Assembly (NCBI GenBank): GCA_021810145.1
Contig: JAJZJL010000003.1
Span: 7,218-71,217, forward strand
Direction: 5' to 3'
Source of the DNA: Planctomycetota bacterium
GTDB lineage: Bacteria > Planctomycetota > Phycisphaerae > WQYP01
DNA length: 64,000 nucleotides
Every line of letters starts with the position of its first letter. The first letter of the stretch is position 1. Shown here piece after piece: positions 36,774 through 63,711 of the stretch. The position numbers were made by a program, and so were the translations under genes. The notes under the pieces were generated by a model, which made no database searches, was not told the DNA's origin, and was given only the letters and a program-made list of their open reading frames with translations.

Positions 36774-36801
36774 CGCATGTTCTCCGATGGATCAGCGGGA
36801 A

Positions 36802-39788: not shown

Positions 39789-39794
39789 GCTGGT

Positions 39795-40436: not shown

Positions 40437-40439
40437 GAT

Positions 40440-41351: not shown

Positions 41352-41393
41352 GGGTCACCTTACAGCGCGTATCCGCCGGATTTTCGCACAACC

Positions 41394-43400
41394 TCAAAAG
41401 CCAAGCGCCAGCAACAGCAGCAGCAGTATTGCCAGCATATAAGCCAGATACATATTGACCGGCTTGTTCTGCAGTGGTCTTAATCGCGCCAGCAATCGCC
41501 GCGTTAAGGCAAAGCAGGGAATTAATCCGCGATCCAGCACCACATCGGGAACATCGCGAACAATTTCCATCGGCTGCGGACAATAGCGCGGCACGGGTAA
41601 TTCAGCATGCGTATTGGGAATCATCCACGAGAACATCTGCGCCAGCATTCGGGAAAAGGACGCCCCGGTGTACTGCATCCGCGATGAGGTTCGGGCGCAG
41701 GCACAACTCCAGGTGGGACGCCTGACGGCGGCCCGGGTTTTTCGCACGGCCCAGAGTACCGAAACAATTGCCGCTGCCGCCAGCAACAGCACCGCATTTA
41801 CGATTGCCATTTCAAGTAAAGGTGCCAAGGCTCCAATTGAACCGCCGGCAGTCGTCGCCCGCGGCGCCCAGTCGTGTATTGCGCGGGCAAGAAATGGCAT
41901 TGTAACGTCGGGAAATAAGGCCATCGCGCAGCATCCGGATGCCAGAATTCCCATGGGCAGAAGCATTGCGGCGCCCGGATCATGCGCGTGACTTATTTGG
42001 TCTGAACGCTTATTACCCAGAAACACCGAACCGGTTAATTTCACGAAGCCTGCCACCGCCAATGCCCCGGTTGCGGCCAGAGCGCCAGCCGCCAGTGAAA
42101 TCCAGACCAATGTACCGCCCTGTGGCACCGTCGCGGTGCGCAGCAAACCCAGATAGATCAGCCATTCGCTTAGAAAGCCGTTCAACCCCGGCAACCCGCA
42201 GATCGCCAGAGCACCCGTAAAAAACAGGATGGCGGTAATCGGCATTTTCGCCGCCAGTCCCCCCAGAGAATCTATTTTCCGCGTATGCGTGGCGTGCAGC
42301 AGGTTGCCCGCTCCCATAAACAGCAGAGGCTTAAATAAGCTGTGATTAAGAACATGGAACAACGCTCCGCCCAATCCCAACACAATAAGATCCGGACGAT
42401 TGACAGATCTGCCGATCAGGGCCAGGCCCAGGCCCATGCAGACAATTCCCATGTTCTCAACACTGCTGTACGCCAGCAGTCGCTTGTAATCGTTCTGGCA
42501 AACCGCAAAAATCACTCCCACCACCGCCGATCCGGCTCCGAGAATCAACAACGTCAAACCCCACCATAGCGGCGGCGCGGTCATTGTTTCACCGATACGC
42601 AGGAGGCCATAAATTCCAATGTTCAGCATTACCCCGGAAAACAATGCCGAAACATGGCTTGGCGCATTGGCGTGAGCACCGGGGAGCCAAACATGCAGCG
42701 GCATAATTCCGGCCTTTAATCCAAAGCCCACCAGAGCCAATATAAACATTGCCGCCGCCATTGCCGAAGGCACCGAGCCATGAAGCGTTATCCACAAATC
42801 AAACGATCCCGTCGTAAGGCGCATCAGTACAACCATCGCCACCAGCGCAATTATTCCAATGTGCGCGGCAATAAGATAAATCCAACCGGCCGCATGAACG
42901 CCTGGGTCATGATCTTCCGTGGTAATGAGAAAAAATGCCGCCAGAGCCATGACTTCCCATGCCATCAGAAACAGCACGCCATCACGCGCCAGCACCACCA
43001 TCATCATTGCGGCGTTCATGATTCCCCAGCACAATCGCAGCTTGCGTCCATTGCCGGGATGCCGGTTCTGTTTCCAATACTCCATGGCGTAAATGGAACC
43101 TGCTATGGAAATGCCCAAAACAGGCATAAGAAACAGAGCGGTTATGCAATCCAGCCCGACGCCAAACCTGCCCCATGGCAACGACCAGGGCCAGGTCAGG
43201 GTTTGAATCCGGGATCCACTTGAGACAAACATCAGCAATGCCGCGCCACCGAGAAGTGTGGCCAGCAGGTTCAAGAGCATCGCAATGCGTTGTCCCGTCA
43301 TGCCGCGGCGGCTGAAAAACAAGCCCGGCACACCCGAAAGGGTCATGCAGAAAACGGATGCCAGAGTTATATATAATGACATGTACATATCAAAGTTCAT
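41394..43400 (-). CDS. NuoL/HyfB-like antiporter-type membrane subunit (copy 2)
   Basis: 668 aa with 'KAGIMPLHVWLPGAHANAPSHVSAL', 'KRLLAYSSVENMG' and 'HSLFKPLLFMGAG'. Confidence 0.8.
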   Translation of the reverse strand: MNFDMYMSLYITLASVFCMTLSGVPGLFFSRRGMTGQRIAMLLNLLATLLGGAALLMFVSSGSRIQTLTWPWSLPWGRFGVGLDCITALFLMPVLGISIAGSIYAMEYWKQNRHPGNGRKLRLCWGIMNAAMMMVVLARDGVLFLMAWEVMALAAFFLITTEDHDPGVHAAGWIYLIAAHIGIIALVAMVVLMRLTTGSFDLWITLHGSVPSAMAAAMFILALVGFGLKAGIMPLHVWLPGAHANAPSHVSALFSGVMLNIGIYGLLRIGETMTAPPLWWGLTLLILGAGSAVVGVIFAVCQNDYKRLLAYSSVENMGIVCMGLGLALIGRSVNRPDLIVLGLGGALFHVLNHSLFKPLLFMGAGNLLHATHTRKIDSLGGLAAKMPITAILFFTGALAICGLPGLNGFLSEWLIYLGLLRTATVPQGGTLVWISLAAGALAATGALAVAGFVKLTGSVFLGNKRSDQISHAHDPGAAMLLPMGILASGCCAMALFPDVTMPFLARAIHDWAPRATTAGGSIGALAPLLEMAIVNAVLLLAAAAIVSVLWAVRKTRAAVRRPTWSCACARTSSRMQYTGASFSRMLAQMFSWMIPNTHAELPVPRYCPQPMEIVRDVPDVVLDRGLIPCFALTRRLLARLRPLQNKPVNMYLAYMLAILLLLLLALGF

Positions 43401-43415
43401 TCCACATTACAATCA

Positions 43416-45434
43416 TTAACGCCCCATGATGCGCGTCACAATACTGGCAACCGGAATCAGCGATGCCAGCAGCACAAACAGCACCAGAACGATATACAGC
43501 AGATATTCCTGTACGCTGCCCTGTTGCACCCGTCGCACCGGAACCAGCATTCGCTTCAAGCGGTCCCATCCGGTAAACGCCGCACGGTCGGTAATCAGGT
43601 CCGGAATATGCGTTTGCCGGTCGATCGGTTCCGCAAAAAGTTTCTCCGGGACCGAGCCATGCGTTACGGGGCGAGCAATCCACCGCAACAATCCCAGAAG
43701 CATTTCGGCAAAGGAAGCGGCGGTGTATTGCATACGGCTGCTTGGGCGGGCATAAGCGCACGCCCATGTCGCAGCGCGCGGTGAGACGGCATGACGCCGT
43801 GTTGCCGGCAGTGCCATAATCAATAACACGATCACGATAACCGCGGCAAAGCCGGTGGAAACCACGCTCAGTGTTTGCCAGGGCAGCGCCGATGCCAGAC
43901 GATGGGCCATCGTCACATCGCCGGCCCACGCCGCCACCGCATGTCCCAGCGGCAGCACCACGATAACCGGCGCAAGACCAATCAGGGCACACACGCCCGC
44001 GAGAACCACCATCGGCCCGATCATGCTGATCGGCGATTCGTGTGCTTTCGTCGGAAGATCGGTGCGAGCACTACCCAGAAATACGCTTCCAAATACTTTT
44101 ACAAAACACGCCACCGCCAAAGCTCCAACCGCTGCCAGCGCTCCCGCTCCGAAAGCCACTGCCGCCCAGCCGCCCGCAGTGGCGTTTGCCGCCGGGGTCA
44201 GCAATCCGACGTACACCAGTAATTCACTGATGAAACCGTTCAATGGCGGCAATCCGCAGATGGCAATGGCACCAACCAGGAACAGCCCCGCACTCCATGG
44301 CATGCGCTTGGCCAGAGACCCAAGCGAATCGAGTTCCCGCGTACCGGTGGCGTGAACCACCGATCCCGCGGAAAGAAACAGCAGCGATTTGAACAAGCCG
44401 TGGTTCCACACATGCAGTAAACAGCCGGCCATTCCCAGCACAACAAACACCGGGGCGTGCAGCGATTTGCCGATCATGGCCAACCCCAATGCCATGAGAA
44501 TAATGCCGATATTTTCAATGCTGTGATAGGCCAACAGGCGCTTGATGTCATGTTGCCCCAGCGCCAAGATCACCCCCAGCAGAGCGTTAACGGTACCAAG
44601 TGACAGAATCACAACGCCCCATACCGCCGGCGGGTTGGGTAGCAGTGTCAATATGCGAAGCAAACCATATATTCCTATTTTCAGCAGCACACCTGAGAGT
44701 TGCGCTGAAATATGACTTGGCGCATTGGCGTGCGCCCCGGGCAACCAGAAATGCAGGGGCATAATCCCGGCCTTAAGACCAAACCCAAATAGCGCTAAAA
44801 GAAATATTGCCGTCTCCAGACCAATGCCGGTTGCGGCTGGAACCGGCGTAAGCTGAAAAGTCCCCGACGCCGCATGCAGCAATGCAAACATCGCAAATAA
44901 TGCCAGCGTGCCAATATGGGTGGCGACAAAATACACCCAGGCCGCCTGCCGGCATTCGGGTTTGTGGTCTTCGGTGGCAATGAGAAAAAAACTCGTCAGA
45001 GCCATGATTTCCCAGGCCAGCAGAAAAGCCAGCGCGCCGTACGCCAGTGTTACCATCACCATCGAGGCAATCAGCAGGCCATAAAGGAATCGCAATTTTC
45101 GCCCGGTTGCCGGGTGTTCCGCCTGCCGCCAATACCCCTGGCCATAAACAGAGCCGGCTGCTGCCAACACAAATATCAGCAGCGTAAAGAATGCCGATAG
45201 AGCATCCATACGCAAATGCAAAGCAACACCAGGCCATATCCCCGGAAGTGAAGTCATGCGTACATGTCCACTGATCAGGGCCAGCAATCCACCGATGAGG
45301 CCGGATACAGAACCCAAAAGCGTCAGCATTGTGGCGACAGTTTGTCCCCAGCCAGCGCGTCGCGGCACCGCCAACCCCGGCAGCCCGCTGATGGCCATGA
45401 GCGTGCAAGCCAAAAGTGTCAGAGACATTTCCAT
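43416..45434 (-). CDS. NuoL/HyfB-like antiporter-type membrane subunit (copy 1)
   Basis: 'KAGIMPLHFWLPGAHANAPSHISAQ', 'KRLLAYHSIENIG' and 'HGLFKSLLFLSAG'. The ATG at 45434 (MEMSLT...) is preceded by GGAG; the track start 45500 extends upstream. Confidence 0.8.
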   Translation of the reverse strand: MEMSLTLLACTLMAISGLPGLAVPRRAGWGQTVATMLTLLGSVSGLIGGLLALISGHVRMTSLPGIWPGVALHLRMDALSAFFTLLIFVLAAAGSVYGQGYWRQAEHPATGRKLRFLYGLLIASMVMVTLAYGALAFLLAWEIMALTSFFLIATEDHKPECRQAAWVYFVATHIGTLALFAMFALLHAASGTFQLTPVPAATGIGLETAIFLLALFGFGLKAGIMPLHFWLPGAHANAPSHISAQLSGVLLKIGIYGLLRILTLLPNPPAVWGVVILSLGTVNALLGVILALGQHDIKRLLAYHSIENIGIILMALGLAMIGKSLHAPVFVVLGMAGCLLHVWNHGLFKSLLFLSAGSVVHATGTRELDSLGSLAKRMPWSAGLFLVGAIAICGLPPLNGFISELLVYVGLLTPAANATAGGWAAVAFGAGALAAVGALAVACFVKVFGSVFLGSARTDLPTKAHESPISMIGPMVVLAGVCALIGLAPVIVVLPLGHAVAAWAGDVTMAHRLASALPWQTLSVVSTGFAAVIVIVLLIMALPATRRHAVSPRAATWACAYARPSSRMQYTAASFAEMLLGLLRWIARPVTHGSVPEKLFAEPIDRQTHIPDLITDRAAFTGWDRLKRMLVPVRRVQQGSVQEYLLYIVLVLFVLLASLIPVASIVTRIMGR

Positions 45435-45534
45435 AGCGACTCCAATTTTCGGCGGGACCTCAGGGCCACGCGACCAGGCGGCCCTCCCGCTCGAAAGCAT
45501 GCATCCGGGTTATGCACAACCCGCGGGCGGAAAA

Positions 45535-52596: not shown

Positions 52597-53460
52597 ATGA
52601 AAGAATACCTTGATCTGGTCCAACTGGTCATGGACAAAGGCACCCGCAAAGCCAGCCGTACCGGTGTGGATACCATCAGCTACTTCGGCGCATTTTACAA
52701 AGTGAATCTCGCCAATGGCTTTCCGCTGCTGACCACCAAAAAAGTCAATTATCCCGCTGTGCTTAAGGAACTGCTTTGGTATCTATCCGGGGAGGAACAC
52801 ATCCGAAACCTCCGCAAGCAGACCAAAATCTGGGACGCCTGGGCCGACGAAAATGGCGAACTGGAAACCGCATATGGCCGGTATTGGCGGCGCTTTCCCC
52901 ATCCCGTGCAAAAAAGCCACGCCCCGGTTGCGCAGACGGGCCAGACCTCCGCGCCGGTGGAGGAAATTGATCAAATCGGCTATGTCATCAAGGAAATTAA
53001 ACGCAACCCCAACAGCCGGCGGCTGGTTGTCAGCGCCTGGGAACCGGGCAACGCCGAAACCAGCAAGCTGCCTCCATGCCATTACAGCTTTGTATTTCAG
53101 GTGCTTGATGGCAAACTCAATTGCCACCTTTCGCAGAGATCAGGCGACATCGCCCTGGGCATACCCTTCAACCTGGCCTGCTATGCCACGCTTACACAAA
53201 TGATCGCACAGGAGTGTGGGTTGGGGGTTGGCGAGTTCGCCCACACCATCGTCGATGCCCATATCTATGTTGCAAGCCCGGACGGAAATATGGCGGAATA
53301 CGATCATCTCGCCGGCCTGCAGGAGCAACTCAAGCGTTCACCGCGGCCGTTACCGCAACTGGAAATCGCCCGCAAACCGTTCGCAGAATTAACGTACGAT
53401 GACTTTAAACTAACAGGCTACGACCCCCATCCCGCAATCCAATTCAAAGTGGCGGTGTGA
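52597..53460 (+). CDS. thyA: thymidylate synthase (ThyA type)
   Basis: 'GTRKASRTGVDT', 'LLWYLSG', active-site 'LPPCHYSFVFQV' and 'QRSGDIALGIPFNLA'. Confidence 0.9.
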   Translation: MKEYLDLVQLVMDKGTRKASRTGVDTISYFGAFYKVNLANGFPLLTTKKVNYPAVLKELLWYLSGEEHIRNLRKQTKIWDAWADENGELETAYGRYWRRFPHPVQKSHAPVAQTGQTSAPVEEIDQIGYVIKEIKRNPNSRRLVVSAWEPGNAETSKLPPCHYSFVFQVLDGKLNCHLSQRSGDIALGIPFNLACYATLTQMIAQECGLGVGEFAHTIVDAHIYVASPDGNMAEYDHLAGLQEQLKRSPRPLPQLEIARKPFAELTYDDFKLTGYDPHPAIQFKVAV

Positions 53461-53491: not shown

Positions 53492-54745
53492 TCAGAACCT
53501 GTAACCGATTTCCACGCCAACTTCATCCTCGGTCATCGATGTGCTGATGGGAATACTTTGTCCGCCGATATTCATCGTCCCGCTCATGCCTTGTTGAAAC
53601 GCGTGCATATAGGCTTCGGTAAGCGTCCAGCCCATTCCCAGCCGCTCGGTGGCACCAACGGTGATGTGGTTGGTCATCATGGCCGGCAGAATGAGATTGG
53701 CCACCAGATCCTGCGAGCCGATGGGATTGCTTCCGTAGCAATAGCCGCCACGAACCGTAAGCCATCGGTTAATGCGGTACTGCGTTCCGAAATTGGCAAC
53801 CCATTGATCATGCCAGTGCAGCGGCAGACTGACATAGCTGGTTCCACTCCACGGGCCGTGGATATTGAGATTGTTCATTGTCTCGTGCCAATTGATGTAT
53901 TGACCTTCCAGACTGATGGTCCAGCGTGAAGTTGGGTGAAACGCCACGCCAAAGGCAAGCTGTTGCGGATAATTCAAATGGGTACTGTATTGCCCCGGTC
54001 CGCCGGTGGGACCACCCTGCGATGACAGATTTTGATAACTGGCCTGATAGGTAAGGGGCGTAAAAATAATGGGGCTGCGGTAGCACAAGCCCAAGGTAAT
54101 ATATTTGTTCAGTTTATATAGTCCGCCAATGGTCGCCCCGATGCCAAAGGCGCTGGTGGAGTTATCCAGATTCAACCCGGAAACGGTATCTCCGGTATCC
54201 ACCGTCTGCTGAAACGAGGCGGTCTCATACGCCAGATTCAGCGCGAACCCCACACTCCAGTTTTTGGCCGGCTTCCAGGCAATGGCCGGAGCAATATTGG
54301 CAAACGACAGGTCGCTGTACGCTTCCAGACTTCCGCCGAAGTAATTGGACTGCTGATAATTAACGCCCATGCCGGAAGTTCCATAGAATCCGCCGCCGAA
54401 ATACAGATGCGGCCCAAACGCCGGGGCCAGCCACCCCAGGGCCGGCACGCCGTATACATTGGAGTGGCTGCCGATGGGACCGGCACCGAAATTGGCCTTG
54501 CGGTCGGGGAAAAAGCCCTCCATGGAAAAAGCCGCCTGCGGTTTCAGCCATGCCAAGCCCGCCGGATTGGTTATTGCGGTCATCGGATCACCGGGCGCTG
54601 CAACCACCGCCCCGGCCATACCCATTTGATATTGACCGATCCCGATAAGTTGATATCCATTGGTGGCTGCCACCTGATGGCAAACCGTTGCGGTCAGTAA
54701 GGCCGCAACCGCGGCACACAGGAATTGCTTATACGACATGATCAT
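53492..54745 (-). CDS. outer-membrane transport protein, OMPP1/FadL/TodX family
   Basis: Signal peptide, Gly/aromatic-rich alternating beta-strand pattern, N-terminal 'GYQLIGIGQYQMGMAGA' hatch-like block and a terminal '...EIGYRF'. Confidence 0.7.
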   Translation of the reverse strand: MIMSYKQFLCAAVAALLTATVCHQVAATNGYQLIGIGQYQMGMAGAVVAAPGDPMTAITNPAGLAWLKPQAAFSMEGFFPDRKANFGAGPIGSHSNVYGVPALGWLAPAFGPHLYFGGGFYGTSGMGVNYQQSNYFGGSLEAYSDLSFANIAPAIAWKPAKNWSVGFALNLAYETASFQQTVDTGDTVSGLNLDNSTSAFGIGATIGGLYKLNKYITLGLCYRSPIIFTPLTYQASYQNLSSQGGPTGGPGQYSTHLNYPQQLAFGVAFHPTSRWTISLEGQYINWHETMNNLNIHGPWSGTSYVSLPLHWHDQWVANFGTQYRINRWLTVRGGYCYGSNPIGSQDLVANLILPAMMTNHITVGATERLGMGWTLTEAYMHAFQQGMSGTMNIGGQSIPISTSMTEDEVGVEIGYRF

Positions 54746-55087
54746 TGTCCTTTCCCATCATGTTCCTGTTCCTGCCCCACTGAACAGTGTAGCCATCCGC
54801 GACATCGACGTTCCTAGGAAGTGTGCCGCTTTCACTCATAAGAAACTATCCGGCTCCGGATATAGGAAATTGTCTTAACAGGCTGTGAGTAACTTTCTTA
54901 GGCGTTCCGGTAAGCCCGGAAACTCGACGCACATTCGCCTTGCGGCACAAGGGTTTTATTGGCATGCCGCGGAATTTCCCGCAGCCCCCTCGGTACCGCC
55001 CCGGGGCTACAAATCATTTCCACGACGGCCGGAAGACCGCGACAAATGTATTGACCGCGAGATTCTAATTTCTATGATGAATTCAGT

Positions 55088-55107
55088 GATTGCATGTATT
55101 TGCAATC
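55088..55107. promoter_or_regulatory. 20-bp palindrome upstream of the ArsR-family gene (candidate operator)
   Basis: GATTGCA-tgtatt-TGCAATC has perfect 7-bp arms and ends 30 nt before the ATG at 55138. Confidence 0.3.
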
Positions 55108-55137
55108 GTCGATGTGTTGCGGATACGGAAGTGCAGG

Positions 55138-55518
55138 ATGACACGATCAGACCATAAGCAACTGTGCGAACGGCTCGGAACATTCTTCGGCCTGTTCGCC
55201 AATCCGGTGCGGATGAAAATATTCTGCTGCCTGCAGGACGGACCGCAAAGTGTGTCGCACATTGCCCGCGAGACCGGTATCACCCTGGCCAACACCTCGC
55301 AGCACCTGAGACTGATGCGGCAACTGGGGGCGGTGCATTCCATGCGGTCCGGGCGCAGTGTTTATTACCATGTCGCCGATCCGAGGTTTATTCAAGCCTC
55401 CAATCTGGTGGCCGACGCATTGACCCAGTTGAATCGTCCGGCGGCGGCAGGCCTGTTGCGGCCGTCGCGGGGGTCCCGAATGACTTTATTCCGGCCACAA
55501 GAAGTTTCTAAGTGTTAG
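55138..55518 (+). CDS. ArsR/SmtB-family transcriptional regulator
   Basis: 'FGLFANPVRMKIFCCLQDGPQSVSHIARETGITLANTSQHLRLMRQLG' winged-HTH with a CC pair in helix 3. ATG at 55138 (the track ORF begins upstream at 55090). Confidence 0.8.
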   Translation: MTRSDHKQLCERLGTFFGLFANPVRMKIFCCLQDGPQSVSHIARETGITLANTSQHLRLMRQLGAVHSMRSGRSVYYHVADPRFIQASNLVADALTQLNRPAAAGLLRPSRGSRMTLFRPQEVSKC

Positions 55519-55564
55519 CGCTGTGTGGTCCGGCAGGTGTTTACGTTTTTTGAGGAATTGGATT

Positions 55565-55819
55565 ATGGAAACGGCACATTTGGAGCAAGTCGTCCCGGAT
55601 AAAATTATTGACGCCCGCGGCACCGCCTGCCCCGGCCCCCTTCTGGAGGCCAAGAAAGGAATCGGCACCGTTAAAGTCGGACAGGTTATCGAGGTAAAGT
55701 CCAACGATGTCGGATCGCGAAAGGATATCGCCGCCTGGGCGGGGAAAATCGGCCATGAGTTTCTGGGAATTCTCCAGGCCGATGGCCACGATCGTCTTTT
55801 TGTGCGCCGGAAAAAATAA
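55565..55819 (+). CDS. TusA/SirA-family sulfur carrier protein
   Basis: 'IDARGTACPGPLLEAKK' carries the CPxP active-site motif, and the protein is about 84 aa. ATG at 55565. Confidence 0.8.
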   Translation: METAHLEQVVPDKIIDARGTACPGPLLEAKKGIGTVKVGQVIEVKSNDVGSRKDIAAWAGKIGHEFLGILQADGHDRLFVRRKK

Positions 55820-55856
55820 CATCGGTGTTGGCGGTCGTAAGGCATGGAGCTGAAAC

Positions 55857-56336
55857 ATGTTATCGGAAAACAGCTTTAATCCGAAGATTCTGGTGCTGGC
55901 CACCGAGGCGTGTGCTTATCCCGGTGCCGATGCCGTAGGCAAAGCGCATCTGGAATACGGCGCCAACGTATATGTTCTGCGTGTGCCGTCACCGGTATTG
56001 TTTCCCGAGGATTTCTATCTGCGGTGTTATGCCAGGGGAATTGATGGAATACTCATCGCGGCGTGCGGGTCGGACTGTCCGTACCGCGGGGCGTATGATC
56101 GTCTTGCGGCGCGAATTGATCGGCTGACAACGCGCATGAAAACCGGCGGACTGGAAATTCAGCGTATCCGTCTGACCGCCATCTGCACGGTGTGCATCAA
56201 GGCGTACCTGAAGGAAGTCGGACAGATGGATGAACAGCTCCGTGCGCTGGGGCCGGTGAACCGGCCACTGGCGGAGCAATTGCGGATTGCGGCGCGGGCC
56301 CAAATGCGTGAAGCCGCGCACGTGCATGCCGCATAG
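55857..56336 (+). CDS. stand-alone MvhD/FlpD-like (methyl-viologen-reducing hydrogenase delta subunit) domain protein
   Basis: 'ILVLATEACAYPGADAVG...VYVLRVPSPV...GIDGILIAACGSDCPYRG' is collinear with the MvhD pattern 'CCNWC.Y.GAD...R.MC.GR...G.DGV...GC...DCHY', but several Cys positions are replaced. Confidence 0.65.
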   Translation: MLSENSFNPKILVLATEACAYPGADAVGKAHLEYGANVYVLRVPSPVLFPEDFYLRCYARGIDGILIAACGSDCPYRGAYDRLAARIDRLTTRMKTGGLEIQRIRLTAICTVCIKAYLKEVGQMDEQLRALGPVNRPLAEQLRIAARAQMREAAHVHAA

Positions 56337-56373
56337 AACCATGCGGCCCGTGGTGTTGAAAGGTGTATCAATC

Positions 56374-57714
56374 ATGATTGCCAGTGCCAACAACGAGCGG
56401 CGTAAAAATACCGTGGTGATCGGCGGCGGGATAGCCGGATTACAGGCGGCTCTGGACCTTGCGGATCAGGGCTACAAGGTGGCGGTGGTGGAGCGGCAGG
56501 CGAGCATCGGCGGGCGCATGATCAGCCTCAGCAAGGTCTATCCCACCCTGGACTGTGCCAGTTGTATTACCACGCCCAAAATGTCCGCCGCCGCGCATCA
56601 CGAAAACATCGAACTGCTGACCTATACCGAAGTGGATTCCATAAGCCCCGGCCCGCACGGACACACCGTGGTCGTTACCCGCAAGCCCACGTATGTGAAC
56701 GCGGAAAAGTGCATTGGCTGCCGGTTATGCGAATATGCCTGCGATACCGAACATCCCGATGATTTTGAACAGGATTTGGGATCGGTTCGCGCTATTTCCG
56801 TGGCTTTTACCAATGCCATTCCACAGAAGGCGGTATTGGATGCCGATTATTGCCTGGCGTGCGGATTATGCCTGCGCGCCTGTCCGACGGACGCCATTGA
56901 ATTTGATCAGCAGCCGCGGCAGGAAACCATTCATGCCGATACGGTTATTGTGGCCTCCGGATTTCAACTCAACGCGTTGACCATCAAGCCGCAATACGGG
57001 GCGGATAAGAATCAGAATGTTATTTCCCCGCTGACCCTGGAACGGCTTCTGGCCCCGCATGGTCCCTACGGCCGCGTGCTGCGGCCATCGGACGGCAAAA
57101 TTCCGGACTCCATCGCGTTTGTGCAATGCGCCGGCTCACGCGATGAGACCATTGGCGTGCCTTATTGCTCAAGAGTCTGCTGCATGTACGCCATTAAACA
57201 GGCCATGCTGCTGTCCGGATCATTGCCGACCGCGGATATTACGATTTACTACATGGATATTCGCGCATTCGGAAAAGGGTATGAACAGTTTTACCAGAAT
57301 GCCAAAGCCATGGGCATTAATTTTGTCCGCGGAAAAGTATCTAAAATTGATTCCGCCGACAAAGATGATCTGCTGGTGCACGTGGAATTAACCGAAGAAG
57401 CGCAGGACTGTGTCCGTAAACAGCGGCATGACCTGGTGGTGTTGGCCCAGGGAATGATTCCACAGTGGAATCCAACCGCCAGTTCGCCGGTGCACATTGG
57501 CCGCGACGGCTTTGTGGCCACACCGGACGCGGGATCTCCCTGTTCGACCAATGTGCCGGGGATATTCGTGGCCGGTACGGCGGGTGGCCCCAAGGATATT
57601 GTCGACAGCATAGCGGAAGCCGGCGCAGCGGCCATGGAAGCCGGGCGGTATTTGAGCATGCGTGGAGCTTCCAGCGATTCCCCGCGGACCGTGGCACTGG
57701 AACTCATGGCATAA
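56374..57714 (+). CDS. HdrA-like FAD/FeS oxidoreductase (QmoA-like)
   Basis: 'VVIGGGIAGLQAALDLA', 'TLDCASC', ferredoxin motifs 'CIGCRLCEYAC' and 'CLACGLCLRACP', and the HdrA-type 'CSRVCC'. ATG at 56374. Confidence 0.8.
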   Translation: MIASANNERRKNTVVIGGGIAGLQAALDLADQGYKVAVVERQASIGGRMISLSKVYPTLDCASCITTPKMSAAAHHENIELLTYTEVDSISPGPHGHTVVVTRKPTYVNAEKCIGCRLCEYACDTEHPDDFEQDLGSVRAISVAFTNAIPQKAVLDADYCLACGLCLRACPTDAIEFDQQPRQETIHADTVIVASGFQLNALTIKPQYGADKNQNVISPLTLERLLAPHGPYGRVLRPSDGKIPDSIAFVQCAGSRDETIGVPYCSRVCCMYAIKQAMLLSGSLPTADITIYYMDIRAFGKGYEQFYQNAKAMGINFVRGKVSKIDSADKDDLLVHVELTEEAQDCVRKQRHDLVVLAQGMIPQWNPTASSPVHIGRDGFVATPDAGSPCSTNVPGIFVAGTAGGPKDIVDSIAEAGAAAMEAGRYLSMRGASSDSPRTVALELMA

Positions 57715-57726
57715 CAGAGGTTGATC

Positions 57727-59577
57727 ATGGACAGCGTCAATGACACAGCAGTACAGGATCCGGCACATTCGGCATCACCGCGCGTGGGTGTGTACATCTG
57801 CCGCTGCGGCGGCAATATTTCCGATGTTGTTGATACGGATCACGTTGCCGAGGTTTGCCGGCTTATTCCGGGTGTTGCGGTCGCCAAAGTTCACACGTTC
57901 ATGTGCTCTGATCCGGGGCAGCAGACCATCAGCGATGATATCAGACAGGAAAAACTGGATCGGGTGGTGGTGGCGTCGTGTTCCCCGTTTCTGCACGAAT
58001 TGACGTTTCGCGGTGCGGTGATGCGCAGCAGGATGAATCCCTATCTGTACGAACACGTCAATATCCGGGAGCAGTGTTCATGGGCACACAAACATGATCC
58101 GCAAGGAGCCACCGCCAAGGCCATTCAACTTATCAGCGCGGCCGTGGGAAAGGTCCGCTGCGCCACAGCGCTGGAAAAAATTCGCCTGCCCAATCACCGC
58201 CGGGCGCTGGTGGTCGGCGGCGGCCCGGCCGGCATGAAGGTGGCGGCGGACCTGGCGGCATGCGGAATTCCCGTGGTGGTTGTGGAGCGGTCGGATCGTC
58301 TGGGGGGAAAATTGCCGACGCTCAACCGCCTTTTTCCGGACGGGCAGAACGCAACAGCGCTGACGGATAAGCTGGAATCGCAGGTGCAGGTCAATCCCAA
58401 AATCGAGATTCTCTTAAAAAGTGAAGTGACCCAGGTCAGTGGTTTCATCGGCAACTTTGAAGTTACCATTCATGGCGACTTTGGTCCGTCCGGGCAGAGT
58501 ACCGACATTCATACCACGGTTGGCGTTATTGTCATGGCCACCGGATTTAAACCGTATGTTCCCAACGATGGTGAATTCAGCTACCGGAAGCATCCGGCGG
58601 TGGTTACAACGCTGGATTTCAACGCTTTGCTGGCCCGGCAGCACGGCAATCGCCGAACGCTTGAATTTGATGGAAGATCCATACGCAGCATCGCTTTTAT
58701 CCACTGCGTCGGCAGCCGGCAGCTTGACGGCGTACATGCGCCGGGACCGGATGGCCGCTTAAATACCTACTGTTCGCGTGTCTGCTGCACCACGGTTCTG
58801 AATCAGGCGGTGCAGGTGCGGCAAAACTTTCCGGACACCCGCGTTTATGACCTGCATCAGGATATCCGCACTTATGGCCGGGGTCATGAGGAATATTACA
58901 CCGATGCTTCACGCGCCGGAGTGGTGTTTTTCCGATATCACGGCGATGAACCGCCAAAGGTAGTTCATACCGACGGACCAGGCTCGCCCCTGCGGATTAC
59001 CGTTAAAGATTATCTGTCATGGGGAGAGGAACTGGAACTGGAAGCGGATATGGTGGTCCTGGCGGTCGGCATGACTCCGGGGTCTTGCGAAACACTGGTG
59101 GATCAACTCAAGCTTCCGCGCGGCGAGGACGGCTTCCTGCAGGAAATTCACCCCAAACTTCGCCCGGTTGAAATTTCCGTCAATGGCGTATTGCTGGCGG
59201 GTACGGCGCAAGCCCCGATGAATATTCACGAAACTCTGGCCGCCGCCGGCGCAGCGGCCGTTAAGGCCCGAGCCATGTTCACCACCGATGAAGTTGAACT
59301 CAATCCGTATGTCGCCGAGGTTAATACGCAATTATGCGAAGGATCCGGCGCGTGTCTTACGCAATGTGAATATGACGGAGCCTTGACCCTGACGGAAATA
59401 CAGCAGGATGGCCGAACCGTGCGTAAAGCGCGGGTAAATCCCGGCCTGTGCGTGGGTTGCGGCGCGTGCGTGGCGGTCTGCCCGACGCAAGCCATCAATG
59501 TCAGCGGCTGGCGCATTGATCAATACGATGCGATGGTCGATGGCCTGGTGCGGGATATGGCCCCGGCCACGGTTTAA
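57727..59577 (+). CDS. HdrA-like FAD/FeS oxidoreductase, long form (QmoB-like but without C-terminal MvhD domain)
   Basis: N-terminal 'VGVYICRCGGNISDVVD', 'LVVGGGPAGMKVAADLA', 'CSRVCC', and C-terminal 'CEGSGACLTQC' and 'CVGCGACVAVCP'. Confidence 0.8.
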   Translation: MDSVNDTAVQDPAHSASPRVGVYICRCGGNISDVVDTDHVAEVCRLIPGVAVAKVHTFMCSDPGQQTISDDIRQEKLDRVVVASCSPFLHELTFRGAVMRSRMNPYLYEHVNIREQCSWAHKHDPQGATAKAIQLISAAVGKVRCATALEKIRLPNHRRALVVGGGPAGMKVAADLAACGIPVVVVERSDRLGGKLPTLNRLFPDGQNATALTDKLESQVQVNPKIEILLKSEVTQVSGFIGNFEVTIHGDFGPSGQSTDIHTTVGVIVMATGFKPYVPNDGEFSYRKHPAVVTTLDFNALLARQHGNRRTLEFDGRSIRSIAFIHCVGSRQLDGVHAPGPDGRLNTYCSRVCCTTVLNQAVQVRQNFPDTRVYDLHQDIRTYGRGHEEYYTDASRAGVVFFRYHGDEPPKVVHTDGPGSPLRITVKDYLSWGEELELEADMVVLAVGMTPGSCETLVDQLKLPRGEDGFLQEIHPKLRPVEISVNGVLLAGTAQAPMNIHETLAAAGAAAVKARAMFTTDEVELNPYVAEVNTQLCEGSGACLTQCEYDGALTLTEIQQDGRTVRKARVNPGLCVGCGACVAVCPTQAINVSGWRIDQYDAMVDGLVRDMAPATV

Positions 59578-59592
59578 GAAGGATGGTGCCCC

Positions 59593-59910
59593 ATGGCAAA
59601 AAAAGCGATTACGGCGGAACAGAAAAAAGCTCTCGCCGATTTCAGAGCCCGAACGGGCGGTAGCGACGAGCTTAAACTCAAGCGGCATAAGGACTTTCTC
59701 ACGGCCCGAAAGGCCATACGAAAATCCCTGCAAAATCAGCCCGATACGGTGCCAGCACTGGCGCAAAGCCTGAATCTGCCGGCACCGGACGTATTGCGGC
59801 ACATCGCCGGAATGCGGAAATACGGCGAGGTGCGGGAACTCGGCGAAACCGACGGATATGTCCGCTACGGCCTGACGGAACCGGAGCCTGCAAGCCCGAA
59901 AAAGCTTTGA
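59593..59910 (+). CDS. hypothetical small protein, possible winged-helix
   Basis: 105 aa, Lys/Arg-rich N-terminal half followed by 'VPALAQSLNLPAPDVLRHIAGMRKYGEVRELGETDGYVRYGL'. It is tightly packed between the HdrA-like and QmoC-like genes. Confidence 0.4.
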   Translation: MAKKAITAEQKKALADFRARTGGSDELKLKRHKDFLTARKAIRKSLQNQPDTVPALAQSLNLPAPDVLRHIAGMRKYGEVRELGETDGYVRYGLTEPEPASPKKL

Positions 59911-59957
59911 CGCCGTCGTACATTGGCAATGCGGCAAGAGAATGAAGAGGTTGTATC

Positions 59958-61115
59958 ATGGCTGGGACATTTAATTCGGATCTGCATCTGGATATCAAGG
60001 CGTTTGGCGGGAAAGATGTGGATATGTGCATGAACTGCGGGACATGCACAACCATCTGTCCCATGTCGGAAGACTCCGGCGGCGGCTTTCCGCGCCGGGT
60101 GATCCGGCTGATTCAGACCGGGCAGCAGGCCAAACTGGAAGCCAGCCTGGATCCGTGGATGTGCTATTATTGCGGTGACTGCACCAGCAGTTGTCCACGC
60201 CAGGCGAATCCGGCGGAAACCATGATGGCGTCACGCCGCTTTCTCACCGCCCGTTATGATTTTACATCCCTCGCCCGATTGTTCTATCGATCGGCCGCGG
60301 CCGAAATTTCGGCCATTATTCTGGTTGGACTGTTTGTCACCGGATTATTTGTAGCCTTTCACGGGCCGATGGTGTTAAACAAAGTCGAACTCAATACGTT
60401 CGCCCCGGTTCATGCGGTTGAACTGGGCGACTGGATTATGGCGGCGGTGCTCTCGTTTTTCCTGCTGGCCGGAGCCGCCCGCATGACCTGGTGGACGCTG
60501 GGGCGGCGAAACATGTTCCGTATTTCACCGATGATTTTTCTCCGGCAAATTCCGGTGTTTTTTGTGCATCTGTTCACGCAGAAACGCTGGCATAAATGCG
60601 GATCGCATCCCAGTGCCGTCCGCTGGTTCAAGCACCTGCTGCTGGTTTCCGGATATTTAAGCATGCTCACGCTGGTGCTGATACTTTTACGCTGGTTTCA
60701 AACCGACACGGTGTACCCGTTTTATTATCCGCAGCGGCTCTGGGGATATTATGCCACCATTGCGCTGCTGTATCCGACGGCGGATTTCCTCATTTCCCGC
60801 TGGCGGCGCAAGGAACCGATTCACCTCTTCAGCGAAGCCAGCGACTGGATATTCCTGATCATGCTGTTTCTGACCGCATTAACCGGCATTATGGTTAATA
60901 TTTTCCGCGTGGGCTCATTGCCCATGGCCACGTATGTTATTTACGTTATTCATCTTTCCATTGCGGTTCCCATGCTGGTGGTGGAAGTTCCGTTCAGTAA
61001 ATGGTCGCATATCATGTATCGGCCATTGTCGATATATCTGGCGGGGGTCAAGCAGGCGGCGGCGAATGCCGCGCGAAAGCTTGAAGAACCGGAAGCAACG
61101 AAAGCGGCCGCGTGA
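59958..61115 (+). CDS. QmoC-like protein: HdrC-like 2x[4Fe-4S] domain fused to an HdrE/NarI-like membrane domain
   Basis: 'CMNCGTCTTICP' and 'CYYCGDCTSSCP', followed by about 6 hydrophobic segments containing conserved His residues. Confidence 0.7.
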   Translation: MAGTFNSDLHLDIKAFGGKDVDMCMNCGTCTTICPMSEDSGGGFPRRVIRLIQTGQQAKLEASLDPWMCYYCGDCTSSCPRQANPAETMMASRRFLTARYDFTSLARLFYRSAAAEISAIILVGLFVTGLFVAFHGPMVLNKVELNTFAPVHAVELGDWIMAAVLSFFLLAGAARMTWWTLGRRNMFRISPMIFLRQIPVFFVHLFTQKRWHKCGSHPSAVRWFKHLLLVSGYLSMLTLVLILLRWFQTDTVYPFYYPQRLWGYYATIALLYPTADFLISRWRRKEPIHLFSEASDWIFLIMLFLTALTGIMVNIFRVGSLPMATYVIYVIHLSIAVPMLVVEVPFSKWSHIMYRPLSIYLAGVKQAAANAARKLEEPEATKAAA

Positions 61116-61169
61116 TGTCGGAGTCAACCGCCGCCGCGCAGCGGATCACATTGCATAAAGGAGTTTGTT

Positions 61170-61727
61170 ATGGCTGTTATGGAAAAACCGGATATGGATC
61201 AGAAAATTGCGGAATTAACGGCCCGCGTGGAGTCGCTGGAAAAATCCGCCGGCAATGACCGGCTTGCCATCGGTGTCATGCAGGGGGATCTGGATTCCAC
61301 GATTGCCGCTTTTATCATTGCGCTGGGAGCGGTGGCGTATGACATTCAGGTGGACATGTTTTTCACCTTCTGGGCTATCGCGGCACTGCGTGATCCGAAA
61401 AAGCATGCGAAAAAAGGCGTGCTGGACCGCATGTTTGGAATCATGCTGCCGAGAGGTTCGCGCGGCCTGCCGCTTTCCAAAATGCAGATGGCCGGCATCG
61501 GACCGAAAATGATTCGCGCGGTTATGAAACAGCGCGGCGTTAAATCGCTTGAGGAGCTTATGCAGCAAGCCGGCGAACTTGGCGTGCGTATTCACATCTG
61601 CGAGATGTCCATGAATGTTATGGGCTTCAAGGAACAGGAGATGATGGATTATCCGCATCTGGATTATGTCGGCGTGGGCACGTTTATTAACTTAATCAGT
61701 GAATCCAAGCAGGTTGTGTTCCTGTAA
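61170..61727 (+). CDS. DsrE/DsrF-like (DrsE_2-type) family protein
   Basis: AAAGGAG RBS. 'AAFIIALGA', 'FFTFWAI' and 'RIHICEMSMNVMGF' form the Cys-containing family block. Confidence 0.65.
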   Translation: MAVMEKPDMDQKIAELTARVESLEKSAGNDRLAIGVMQGDLDSTIAAFIIALGAVAYDIQVDMFFTFWAIAALRDPKKHAKKGVLDRMFGIMLPRGSRGLPLSKMQMAGIGPKMIRAVMKQRGVKSLEELMQQAGELGVRIHICEMSMNVMGFKEQEMMDYPHLDYVGVGTFINLISESKQVVFL

Positions 61728-61790
61728 AGCCGATTCAGCGGCCGCCGCGTTGCGTGCCGCGTATCCCGCGGGGTACAAAGGAGAATCATC

Positions 61791-62780
61791 ATGAACATGC
61801 AAACCCAATACATGGGATTTACGCTTGAAACACCCTTAATCATCGGGGCATCGCCTCTGGCGGACGATTCCCAGCGGGTTGGCGCGCTGGTGGAGGCGGG
61901 AGCGGCGGCGGTGGTGCTGCACTCGCTGTTTCAGGAACAAATTGATGGCGAGCATTTTTCAACCGTGTATCTCCGGGAAATGTACGCCGACGCACAACCC
62001 CGGCGCGATGATTTTATTGATCCGACCGCCTTTCATTCGAATCCTGAACAATATTTATCGCACATCGAGAACCTCAAGAAAATGGTGAATGTGCCGGTCA
62101 TCGGATCGCTCAACGGCTCGCGCCCCGGCGGATGGATTCGCTACGCCGAACATATCCAGCAGGCCGGCGCCGACGCACTGGAATTAAACCTCTACGCATT
62201 TCCCAGCGATCCCAGCATCAGCGGCCAGGATGTTGAAAATCAGATGCTGGATATTATCCGCATGGTGACCGGCTCGGTACGCATACCGGTGGCGGTGAAG
62301 GTTTCACCGTTTCTATCATCGCTGCCGCATTTTGCATCAGCCGTTCAGCACGCCGGTGCCGCGGCACTGGTATTGTTTAACCGGGTCTATCAGATTCCGG
62401 AAGAAACGATCATGCGCGACAGCGAACCGGCCGGCCATCAGCAGGATAGTGCACATTTACAGATACGCCTTTACTGGCTGGCGGTTATGGCGCAGCATCT
62501 GAATGTTTCCCTGGCCATATCCGGCGCAGTGAATACCGGGACGGATGTGTTCAAAGCGGTCAAGGCCGGTGCCCACGCCGCGCAGGTGGTTTCAGCGGTA
62601 TTGCGCAGCGGCCCCAATGCGCTGCGAAACATATTACGCGAATTCCAGCAATGTATGCTGCAGCAGCACTGCCAGTCCATCGACGATCTGCGCCGGGTTA
62701 CGCGCTTTGACCAGGTACCCGATCCGGAAACCTGCGAGCGCCTTCGCTATATGCGGGCCTTGCAGCACTGGCAACAGTGA
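61791..62780 (+). CDS. dihydroorotate dehydrogenase-like (class 1 DHOD/DPD-type TIM-barrel flavoprotein) protein
   Basis: AAAGGAG RBS. 'LETPLIIGASPL', 'GAAAVVLHSLF', 'GADALELNLY', 'IPVAVKVSPF' and 'LAISGAVNTGTDVFKAVKAGA'. Confidence 0.7.
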   Translation: MNMQTQYMGFTLETPLIIGASPLADDSQRVGALVEAGAAAVVLHSLFQEQIDGEHFSTVYLREMYADAQPRRDDFIDPTAFHSNPEQYLSHIENLKKMVNVPVIGSLNGSRPGGWIRYAEHIQQAGADALELNLYAFPSDPSISGQDVENQMLDIIRMVTGSVRIPVAVKVSPFLSSLPHFASAVQHAGAAALVLFNRVYQIPEETIMRDSEPAGHQQDSAHLQIRLYWLAVMAQHLNVSLAISGAVNTGTDVFKAVKAGAHAAQVVSAVLRSGPNALRNILREFQQCMLQQHCQSIDDLRRVTRFDQVPDPETCERLRYMRALQHWQQ

Positions 62781-62946
62781 CCTTATAGCCGGTATGGAAA
62801 ATCCGCCAGCAGCGCCTTGGGGCGGCAAACTGCCGCCTGCGGCGTAATCGATCCTCAATATATTCCGGAATAGGCTTGGGATCTGCGTTCTTGCGTCCAA
62901 TCATCCGCCAAACAATGAACCCACAGCGGACTTTTCAAACAGTCTC

Positions 62947-63711
62947 TTACGCCCGCCGGGCCGCCAGCGCCCGGCAGGTATCGGCGAATACTTCCTCCGG
63001 TGAAGCGTCGGCTGAAATGGGAACCAGCACGCCACGCTGCTGGTAATAGGCGGTAAGAGGTTCGGTTACGGCGGTGTATTGGCGCATGCGGATACAGGCC
63101 ACTTCCGGACGATCATCATCACGTTGTTTGAGTTTGCCTCCGCACTGATCACACATGCCAACGCTTTTTTGCGGCGGCTTGCTTACCGTGTGATAGACCG
63201 CATGACAATTCGGACATGTGAGCCTGCCGGCGGCGCGGGCGATTGTGGCGTCAAGCGACAATTCGTAATCGATTACCGCGTCCAAAACAATGTTTTCGCT
63301 CGCCAGGAGTTTATCAAAATCAATGGCCTGCTGCAGCGTGCGGGGGAAGCCATCCAAAATAAAACCGCCGGCACAGTGCAGACAACCGGACCGTTCCGCC
63401 ACCATCGCCATGACCAGTTCATCGGAAACCAGTTTTCCCGCCCGCATCAACGCCAGAGCCTCGCTCATGGCGGCGGTGGCTTGGCAGGATTCCATCCGCT
63501 TGGCCGTGCGAAACACATCACCGGTGGAAAGATGGCACGCTCCAAATTGCGCCGCCAGCAATTGAGCCTGTGTCCCCTTGCCCACACCCGGGGGGCCGAG
63601 CAGAACCAGCCGCCATGGCCGCTGCTGCGCTGGAGGTTTGACGGAACACTCAAACGCCGGCCCCTTGAGCCAGGCGGCACGATCCGATGGCGGTGTAACA
63701 GCAGGGCGCAT
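62947..63711 (-). CDS. adk: adenylate kinase (Zn-lid type) with an N-terminal extension of about 30 aa
   Basis: 'LVLLGPPGVGKGTQA', 'LSTGDVFR', 'GFILDGFPRT' and lid 'CPNCHAVYH...CDQCGGKLKQRDDD'. There is only one in-frame ATG. Confidence 0.9.
   Translation of the reverse strand: MRPAVTPPSDRAAWLKGPAFECSVKPPAQQRPWRLVLLGPPGVGKGTQAQLLAAQFGACHLSTGDVFRTAKRMESCQATAAMSEALALMRAGKLVSDELVMAMVAERSGCLHCAGGFILDGFPRTLQQAIDFDKLLASENIVLDAVIDYELSLDATIARAAGRLTCPNCHAVYHTVSKPPQKSVGMCDQCGGKLKQRDDDRPEVACIRMRQYTAVTEPLTAYYQQRGVLVPISADASPEEVFADTCRALAARRA

Follow-up and report, generated by a model that had tools for sequence, protein, structure and literature searches.

HdrA- and Qmo-type complexes are central to anaerobic energy conservation. 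In canonical QmoABC, the quinone-interacting membrane-bound oxidoreductase known from sulfate reducers and certain sulfur oxidisers, two HdrA-related flavoproteins are combined with an MvhD-like module, carried by QmoB as a C-terminal domain, and with QmoC, in which an HdrC-like 2x[4Fe-4S] domain is joined to a multi-helix membrane domain. The present analysis concerns a 64,000-nucleotide stretch of DNA, hereafter the window, from contig JAJZJL010000003.1 (positions 7,218 to 71,217, forward strand; assembly GCA_021810145.1) of a Planctomycetota bacterium of the Phycisphaerae, in which a cluster of nine genes encodes counterparts of these subunits in a different arrangement. The MvhD-like protein is free and encoded first among the subunits, the second HdrA-like protein ends in a ferredoxin domain, a winged-helix protein is added, and linkage to tusA and dsrE takes the place of linkage to aprBA and sat. 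Judged by the homology of its products, the cluster appears to be a widely conserved operon that joins a membrane, quinone-linked HdrA/QmoC complex to the sulfur carriers TusA and DsrE. With it, anaerobes could probably carry out the reduction or oxidation of sulfur bound to proteins in the absence of the known sulfur enzymes.

Among the nearest described systems is the "type II" QmoABC reported by Neukirchen et al. in 2023 from Vulcanisaeta moutnovskia and Ammonifex degensii, whose QmoA/B-like subunits are closer to HdrA than to bacterial QmoAB, which occurs with or without Apr and Dsr, and whose function is called unclear (PMC10504309). The same paper acknowledges the function of Qmo-like complexes outside sulfate reducers as an open question (PMC10504309). 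The HdrA-like proteins of the window would share with this type their affinity to HdrA, their best matches being methanogen HdrA (E-values of 1e-113 to 1e-116), a likeness drawn from the published description rather than from a tree. No linkage to TusA, DsrE or ArsR is described in the available portion of that paper, and both named examples are sulfate reducers (PMC10504309). The preliminary description of this locus had held that no characterised system with its gene combination could be named; a type II Qmo of unclear function was in fact already in the literature, whereas the TusA/DsrE-linked form was not found in the available part of that source (PMC10504309). Nor was a published account of a TusA/DsrE-linked Qmo-like cluster found in the literature searched, which contained papers on canonical Qmo, YTD clusters and HdrL and which did not extend to two relevant reviews.

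Two other HdrA-based systems invite comparison. The MvhAGD-HdrABC complex (5odc, 8rvu), a heterodisulfide reductase with flavin-based electron bifurcation, shares with the cluster the core of HdrA, its iron-sulfur domains (N-terminal, inserted and C-terminal), MvhD and the cysteine ligands; in the window, however, two proteins divide the HdrA domains between them, HdrC forms a fusion with a membrane domain, and there is no hydrogenase. HdrB is likewise missing from the window cluster, and with it the non-cubane catalytic clusters: the CCG domain of HdrB and HdrD found no match in the nine proteins (Pfam and NCBIfam) and did not recur in the flanks of related loci. The cluster is therefore not an Hdr. 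In sHdr-LbpA sulfur oxidation, the HdrA complex always occurs with TusA and DsrE-type sulfurtransferases and is under ArsR-type control in some bacteria (PMC11094781, PMC6067878). The window cluster keeps the same company of HdrA-type complex, carriers and regulator, whereas it has a membrane quinone module and matches sHdrA (6tjr) only distantly, at 5e-36 compared with 1e-113 for methanogen HdrA. Since neither sHdrB nor LbpA is encoded (neither the cluster nor the scanned open reading frames, ORFs, of the window contain sHdrB1/B2, sHdrC1/C2 or LbpA), the cluster is not sHdr either.

Gene set, recurrence and sulfur carriers

The nine ORFs run co-directionally on the plus strand from 55135 to 62780 in the order ArsR-TusA-MvhD-HdrA-HdrA-x-QmoC-DsrE-DHOD, where x is a small basic protein (Table 1). 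In this the preliminary description proved accurate: the genes lie where it had placed them, the Pfam and NCBIfam profiles bear out each of its domain assignments (ArsR, TusA, MvhD/FlpD, two HdrA-like proteins, QmoC-like, DrsE_2 and DHOD-like), and the motifs that it quoted (CPGP, CSRVCC in both HdrA-like proteins, 2x CxxCxxCxxxCP and ICEMSM) are all found in the translations. The close spacing holds as well, although the gaps between the nine genes measure 6-63 nt and not 15-65 nt as had been given. We propose that the genes from 55135 to 61727 form one operon.

Table 1. Features of the cluster and of its upstream region, in window coordinates.
Feature	Position	Strand	Basis
Promoter-like site TTGACC-16-TATGAT	55051-55078	+	Best sigma-70 consensus match in 54700-63100, 10/12 positions
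Putative operator, inverted repeat GATTGCA-N6-TGCAATC	55088-55107	.	Sole match in the window; found at the corresponding position ahead of arsR in L004 and L086
ArsR/SmtB-family regulator, 127 aa	55135-55518	+	PF01022 (HTH_5)/PF12840 (HTH_20); NF033788 at 67 bits
TusA sulfur-carrier protein, 84 aa	55565-55819	+	PF01206, 66 bits (cut-off 28.6)
Stand-alone MvhD/FlpD-like iron-sulfur protein, 159 aa	55857-56336	+	PF02662, 67.6 bits
HdrA-like flavoprotein 1, 446 aa	56374-57714	+	HdrA profile NF040770, 1e-138, model positions 138-562
HdrA-like flavoprotein 2, 618 aa	57721-59577	+	HdrA profile NF040770, 1e-146
Small basic protein, 105 aa	59593-59910	+	AlphaFold model (pLDDT 77): long N-terminal helix and winged-helix domain
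QmoC-like membrane protein, 385 aa	59958-61115	+	NF038018 qmoC, residues 12-359 to positions 8-358/360, E 6.8e-52
DsrE-family (DrsE_2) sulfur-binding protein, 185 aa	61170-61727	+	PF13686, 151 bits; Cys144 in ICEMSM
DHOD-like TIM-barrel flavoprotein, 329 aa, PRK07565 family	61791-62780	+	NF005741, 334.4 bits (cut-off 303)

The QmoC-like protein has thousands of homologues, with relatives in at least 598 species genomes, the closest of which is encoded in a Phycisphaerae metagenome-assembled genome (MAG; 87% identity). Through these relatives 83 distinct loci were retrieved for comparison; loci were counted by tblastn and ORF clustering, and conserved residues over 49 cluster-linked homologues. 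Greedy longest-ORF calling on the related loci produced spurious antisense ORFs in GC-rich contigs and was not used for any count. In 48 of the 83 loci, the genes for TusA, MvhD, HdrA1, HdrA2 and QmoC follow in the same order, tightly spaced or overlapping, and the carriers belong to at least seven phyla (Planctomycetota, Acidobacteriota, Chloroflexota, Gemmatimonadota, Verrucomicrobiota, Actinomycetota and Desulfobacterota). Recurrence of one gene order in 48 independent loci and at least seven phyla indicates an arrangement beyond chance.

Both sulfur carriers retain their characteristic cysteines. Cys22 of TusA, in the CPGP active-site motif, is invariant in all 49 homologues, while the window protein scores 33.5 bits against the E. 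coli TusA equivalog, under its cut-off of 78. The DsrE-family protein is well recognised by PF13686, whereas it gives 61 bits against the NF047629 DsrE2 equivalog (cut-off 210) and is thus a member of the DsrE family but not DsrE2 proper. Its gene stands mostly directly after qmoC and occasionally just before tusA. Three forms of the partner occur, each with a conserved cysteine motif, namely of 185 aa (ICEMS), 124 aa (LVCTPC) and 120 aa (LCELA), and the short forms are confirmed as DsrE/DrsE_2 by Pfam. The gap between the TusA and MvhD genes is typically 10-60 nt across the loci, which suggests co-translation. The earlier claim that the Qmo-like module is tied to sulfur carriers is thereby borne out, TusA being present by definition in the 48 loci and a DsrE-family gene in 46-47 of them. 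As a separate observation, the DsrE gene is followed directly, in seven Desulfobacterales clusters, by a conserved gene whose Cys-rich product of about 250 aa found no match in Pfam (L063:11625-12383; homologues in L049, L070, L073, L078, L080 and L081).

Further sulfur-related genes appear in some flanks. A type III SQR follows qmoC directly in locus L035 (NF049943, 640 bits), an SQR/NDH-2-like gene follows it in L066, and the flanks of four loci contain a gene family represented by a CoADR plus rhodanese protein, an architecture found in persulfide reductases.

These findings bear on a sulfur-independent alternative, in which the complex would serve electron transfer as such, for example as an NAD(P)H or ferredoxin:menaquinone oxidoreductase, and TusA and DsrE would be kept for regulation, cofactor sulfuration or protection. 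It is consistent with the lack of a recognisable catalytic sulfur site and with the existence of QmoC relatives that are encoded with HdrA, HdrL or MvhD but no TusA in Desulfobacterales and Ca. Methanoperedens. Nevertheless, the constancy of both carriers and of their active-site cysteines, the short distance between the TusA and MvhD genes and the sulfane-sulfur genes in the flanks all speak against it, and we consider it rather improbable. Among the TusA-free relatives, a second architecture is seen in Desulfobacterales, Desulfocapsaceae and Electrothrix (L055, L033, L034, L039, L041, L045 and L048); in the type exemplified by Desulfospira joergensenii (L055, 10001-20731), a QmoC fusion of about 770 aa is accompanied by MvhD, a protein of 380 aa and two proteins of about 1130 aa each, one an HdrL and the other a further HdrA. 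In Ca. Methanoperedens (L056, 10001-17192), a QmoC-like gene is followed by genes for HdrA, HdrA, MvhD, HdrA and MvhD; the QmoC/HdrA module thus also occurs in methanotrophic archaea. The TusA-free architecture of Desulfobacterales implies that the HdrA-QmoC module is reused with other partners.

Subunits of the HdrA/QmoC module

The two HdrA-like proteins divide the domains of HdrA between them. HdrA-like 1 aligns with residues 154-568 of methanogen HdrA (2.5e-113) and consists of a TrxR-like FAD core with an inserted 2x[4Fe-4S] ferredoxin domain; since it is devoid of the N- and C-terminal HdrA domains, it is QmoA-like. HdrA-like 2 matches HdrA (5odc_A, 4e-116) in two stretches, 19-250 and 259-612, and is composed of an N-terminal [4Fe-4S] domain, an FAD core with no ferredoxin insertion, and a ferredoxin domain at the C-terminus, so that by its domain order it resembles QmoB minus the MvhD domain. 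Jointly, the pair carries the domain set of an HdrA dimer, as QmoA and QmoB do. Both proteins have the FAD core, and both contain the cluster motif CxGxRD...CSxxCC, which 48-49 of the 49 homologues retain. In HdrA-like 1 the same conservation (48-49/49) extends to the eight ferredoxin cysteines and to C61 and C64, which form a DCxxC pair near the FAD; in HdrA-like 2 the cysteine ligands are conserved in 47-49/49, and this pair, kept only by HdrA-like 1, is absent. In 15 of the 48 related loci, HdrA1 is enlarged to about 900 aa by an inserted GltD/NfnB-like NAD(P)H-binding module (Fer4_20 + Pyr_redox). Such an insertion marks the HdrL type of Strittmatter et al. (PMC2702500).

The free MvhD-like protein is similar to the MvhD chains in structures of Mvh-Hdr (2e-12), with C110 and C113 retained in all 49 homologues and C74 in 40. 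The preliminary description of two HdrA-like flavo-iron-sulfur proteins with a separate MvhD is thus confirmed by profiles and by HdrA and MvhD structure matches alike.

The QmoC-like protein combines an HdrC-like 2x[4Fe-4S] domain with a six-helix membrane domain containing invariant histidines. All eight iron-sulfur cysteines, in two CxxCxxCxxxCP motifs, and H226, H332 and H351 are found in 49/49 homologues, and H135 in 43/49; C214, which lies outside the iron-sulfur motifs in a KRWxxC context, is likewise invariant (49/49). Although the alignment to NF038018 is full length, its 177.1 bits fall under the curated equivalog cut-off of 300. The AlphaFold model (predicted local distance difference test, pLDDT, 81) has six long helices, and a Foldseek search with it matched the N-terminus to HdrC and the membrane part, weakly, to NarI (E ~2, probability up to 0.63). 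The full-length qmoC profile alignment, the motifs and the six helices agree with the earlier view of this protein as a QmoC-type iron-sulfur/membrane fusion; its homology to QmoC is firm. Haem binding may be inferred from the profile homology and the invariant histidines. The TcuB profile is also matched over its full length (residues 21-374 to positions 13-367/372), more weakly than qmoC (E 9e-8). TcuB is the membrane iron-sulfur protein of tricarballylate utilisation, where it supplies the quinone pool with electrons taken from a flavoenzyme in the cytoplasm; its partner flavoprotein, unlike those of the window, is TcuA.

The 105-aa protein has no match to a curated family in Pfam or NCBIfam. 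Its best PDB matches in Foldseek are ArsR, SmtB, MarR, SqrR and BigR winged helices (E ~2e-3, template-modelling score ~0.5), which represent a generic likeness only. Of the 48 loci, 47 have a gene for a homologue between those for HdrA2 and QmoC, and an exhaustive profile search collected about 212 clusters of similar small proteins at 50% identity. According to its model, the protein would be a conserved winged-helix subunit or factor of the cluster. It was also considered as DsrD or as DsrC-like, and both assignments were rejected given the lack of a Pfam or NCBIfam match and the generic nature of the winged-helix folds; a DsrD-like activator role is an unsupported possibility.

How far this module departs from canonical QmoABC can be judged from four defining features, of which the QmoC architecture was found, whereas the curated score, the fused MvhD and the linkage to apr were not. 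The overall subunit logic is that of QmoA/QmoB/QmoC (PMC4911364), and several homologues have been named QmoC by JGI pipelines, so that the cluster might be taken for an ordinary APS-reductase QmoABC that was split from aprBA-sat by rearrangement or assembly. This explanation is largely refuted and has, in our view, very little credit left. Besides the low qmoC score and a separate MvhD gene placed first, the HdrA-like subunits are far nearer to methanogen HdrA; no AprAB, Sat or Dsr domain was detected in the 30 other large ORFs scanned in the 64-kb window, and on clustering of the flanking ORFs (+/-7 kb, 48 loci) no Apr-, Sat- or Dsr-like family occurred in four or more loci, several of the contigs being 0.2-5 Mb long. 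In addition, the cluster is present in Desulfobacterales MAGs, sulfate reducers that would be expected to hold a canonical Qmo elsewhere. The sub-cut-off score and the lack of recurrent apr, sat or dsr genes in flanks or window are the grounds on which an ordinary Qmo parted from aprBA was rejected, and the preliminary statement that the cluster has no aprBA, sat or dsr neighbour is upheld within the same scope.

Upstream region, regulator and neighbouring genes

Upstream of arsR, the -35 and -10 hexamers of the promoter-like site are kept in L004 and L086, the two closest relatives, and an inverted repeat lies 9 nt downstream of this site. The repeat had been described as a perfect palindrome; it is indeed an inverted repeat, with 7-bp arms, but its 6-nt spacer, TGTATT, is non-palindromic, so that it is not a perfect 20-bp palindrome. 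Taken alone it is within chance, at least one such match in 64 kb being obtained in 35 of 100 shuffles. In both relatives, the arms are conserved and the spacer is variable, which is the pattern expected of an operator, and the ArsR protein would be predicted to bind here.

The ArsR gene is the commonest upstream gene of the cluster (32 of 48 related loci), and the best solved relatives of its product are BigR (3pqj, 1e-8), SmtB and SqrR (9e-8), which agrees with its earlier designation as the ArsR-type regulator of the cluster. Its cysteines are C11, C31/C32 and C127. Judged by eye from the alignment, C31 occupies the position of BigR C42, but the BigR-type pair (C42/C108 equivalent) is incomplete, the second cysteine being missing, and the score against the curated BigR model (34.8 bits) does not reach the cut-off of 155. 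In the Planctomycetota subgroup to which the window protein belongs, C11 and C31 are conserved, whereas most other cluster-linked homologues have a different cysteine pair, at window positions 18 and 89 (23/33 and 22/33, respectively). Two conserved cysteines in each subgroup and the absence of classical metal sites fit a thiol or persulfide sensor, and ArsR may act as such. A functional resemblance to BigR and SqrR is possible. TusA- and DsrE-like carriers are typical of BigR/SqrR regulons; these regulons and the CoA-persulfide reductase (CoADR-rhodanese) systems, which act in the homeostasis of reactive sulfur species, have in common with the cluster an ArsR-family repressor and the SQR and CoADR-rhodanese genes that lie beside some related clusters. 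They differ in that the window ArsR stays under the BigR cut-off with other cysteine positions, and in that its effector would be a membrane complex of several subunits instead of a soluble flavoenzyme or dioxygenase.

At the downstream end, the DHOD-like protein aligns over residues 1-328 with positions 2-330/335 of NF005741 and falls far under the cut-offs of the true PyrD models. In the preliminary description this flavoprotein was placed in the role of AprAB, as the catalytic partner. On such a model it would draw electrons from the Qmo-like module to turn over a sulfur or organosulfur compound of low molecular weight. Its gene is co-directional with the others and lies 63 nt past dsrE with no terminator-like site between, and it adjoins the cluster in five relatives, all Phycisphaerae or other Planctomycetota (L004, L006, L008, L027 and L086). 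In a neighbour-joining tree, the cluster-linked copies fall into two separate clades, which could reflect repeated recruitment and, if that recruitment were independent, would argue for a functional link; the tree, however, is not robust. Against such a role, these five are all that was found among 44 loci with enough downstream sequence; the gene is absent in the other 39, including the close relative L005, whose QmoC is 79% identical. Moreover, the protein has no iron-sulfur domain for docking, its similarity to PyrD is weak, and its family is huge (more than 7000 homologues). Elsewhere, members directly follow a NifJ-type PFOR gene, sometimes overlapping it, in four of the five unrelated contexts inspected (L084:4363-9023, L087:1287-5993, L088:1320-5993 and L089:1387-5993), and stand alone in the fifth; no sulfur genes were found near the four PFOR-linked copies. 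PFOR and the DHOD-like protein look like a conserved gene pair in their own right, and the DHOD-like protein is more likely tied to low-potential iron-sulfur redox partners than to sulfur chemistry. Patchy adjacency, family size and the PFOR contexts rule it out as a core partner; the gene is a clade-specific accessory or a mere neighbour outside the conserved core, and the claim that it replaces AprAB, which we now regard as very improbable, is not sustained.

The remainder of the window is of mixed content. The 30 other large ORFs scanned include Kdp, Nramp, RuvAB, a glycosidase, lipases, a Hyf-like membrane complex, ThyA, a FadL-like porin and Adk. A gene for a FadL/Toluene_X-type outer-membrane protein lies divergently upstream of arsR (53492-54745, minus strand), with thymidylate synthase nearby (52597-53460, plus strand), and this synteny is also seen in the Phycisphaerae relative L086. 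The Hyf/hydrogenase-4-like membrane complex (35991-45500, minus strand) comprises a HyfH/NuoI + NuoB fusion, a NuoC+D-like "large subunit" of 516 aa, two HyfB-like proteins, one HyfF-like and one HyfE-like protein and a NuoH-like protein. Its large subunit lacks the CGxC and DPCxxC NiFe-binding motifs, and all of its NCBIfam scores are under cut-off apart from that of the fusion protein with a generic NuoB subfamily. Instead of a true hydrogenase, the complex may be an enzyme like Mbx/MBS or complex I.

Proposed electron flow and its implications

The reading that we prefer, and hold with middling confidence, is that persulfide sulfur on TusA and DsrE is coupled to the menaquinone pool by a "type II Qmo-like" complex, with the reductive direction as the most likely one. 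The complex would be anchored in the membrane and would consist of the HdrA1/HdrA2 pair, the separate MvhD-like iron-sulfur adaptor, the winged-helix subunit and the QmoC-like protein with its di-haem-type membrane domain. Sulfane sulfur would enter as a cysteine persulfide on TusA and/or DsrE, QmoC would exchange electrons with the menaquinone pool, and the iron-sulfur chain together with the two HdrA flavins would link the quinone electrons with the sulfur on the carriers. Probably another partner, of low potential, takes part as well, namely NAD(P)H in the HdrL-type relatives (15/48) and, in the short form of the window, ferredoxin or a donor docked on MvhD. In the reductive direction, menaquinol and the low-potential donor would turn the TusA/DsrE persulfide into thiol and H2S, and the complex would serve as an anaerobic sulfane-sulfur reductase for detoxification or respiration, analogous to Qmo feeding AprAB. 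ArsR, as a thiol-based repressor of the BigR/SqrR kind, would bind the repeat at 55088-55107 and let go when persulfides accumulate. The reductive direction is favoured by the analogy with Qmo-AprAB, by the type of regulator and by the persulfide-reductase-like neighbours.

Several points weigh against this coupling of menaquinone to persulfide sulfur. No conserved subunit has a recognised sulfur-chemistry site: profiles of the nine proteins and clustering of the flanks revealed no CCG domain of the HdrB/HdrD/DsrK type and no molybdopterin, sirohaem or rhodanese domain in the conserved subunits, and the only candidate is the DCxxC pair beside the FAD of HdrA1, whose role in sulfur chemistry would be speculation. 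The direction of electron flow is not readable from sequence. For the membrane domain, the predicted haem binding and NarI/HdrE fold are drawn from profile homology and invariant histidines, with a weak fold search; the window ArsR is without the second BigR/SqrR cysteine and far under the BigR cut-off (35 compared with 155 bits). An SQR beside a menaquinol-driven persulfide reductase, as in L035, would create a futile cycle unless the two were regulated differently. Finally, almost all carriers are MAGs.

The same complex might instead run oxidatively and bifurcate electrons, with sulfide converted to TusA/DsrE persulfide at an HdrA flavin, one electron passing downhill to menaquinone via QmoC and the other uphill to ferredoxin or NAD(P)+. 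In sequence, HdrA1, HdrA2 and MvhD as a set are very near to the bifurcating methanogen HdrA (1e-113 to 1e-116), and three redox partners can be named for it, i.e., quinone, sulfur carrier and, in HdrL forms, NAD(P)H. Estimated from textbook potentials, the midpoint between menaquinone (about -74 mV) and ferredoxin (about -450 mV) lies near that of S0/HS- (about -270 mV), which makes the oxidative direction thermodynamically attractive, and the SQR neighbour in L035 fits a sulfide-oxidising context. On the other hand, no enzyme for disposal of the sulfane sulfur is at hand, sHdr, rDsr, PDO and Sox being absent from the cluster and from the recurrent flanks; the carriers are mostly heterotrophic anaerobes of sediment and soil and not known lithotrophs; and the CoADR-rhodanese neighbours indicate persulfide reduction. 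We consider this oxidative direction unlikely; if it were true, sulfide would provide a low-potential reductant without reverse electron transport.

Whichever way the electrons flow, it is possible, as a tentative proposal, that the HdrA/QmoC complex constitutes a new class of respiratory or bifurcating enzyme, which would use TusA/DsrE persulfide as a direct redox substrate without an HdrB- or DsrK-type catalytic subunit and would couple it to menaquinone and to ferredoxin or NAD(P)H by flavin-based bifurcation or confurcation.

The near-universal pairing of the operon with TusA and a DsrE-family protein names a testable substrate, a protein persulfide. The operon is found in lineages that are dominant in wetlands, soils and sediments without oxygen, settings in which cryptic sulfur cycling is important although the genes behind it are poorly assigned. 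Should the proposed function be true, the operon would provide a metagenome marker for sulfane-sulfur turnover, would show an HdrA module doing sulfur redox chemistry without HdrB, and would add a second example, besides Qmo-AprAB, on which quinone-linked electron confurcation could be tested. A new enzyme class of this kind would mean that sulfane-sulfur respiration, or a sulfide-driven supply of low-potential reductant, is widespread and has gone unrecognised in anoxic-sediment phyla such as the Planctomycetota, Chloroflexota, Acidobacteriota and Desulfobacterota.

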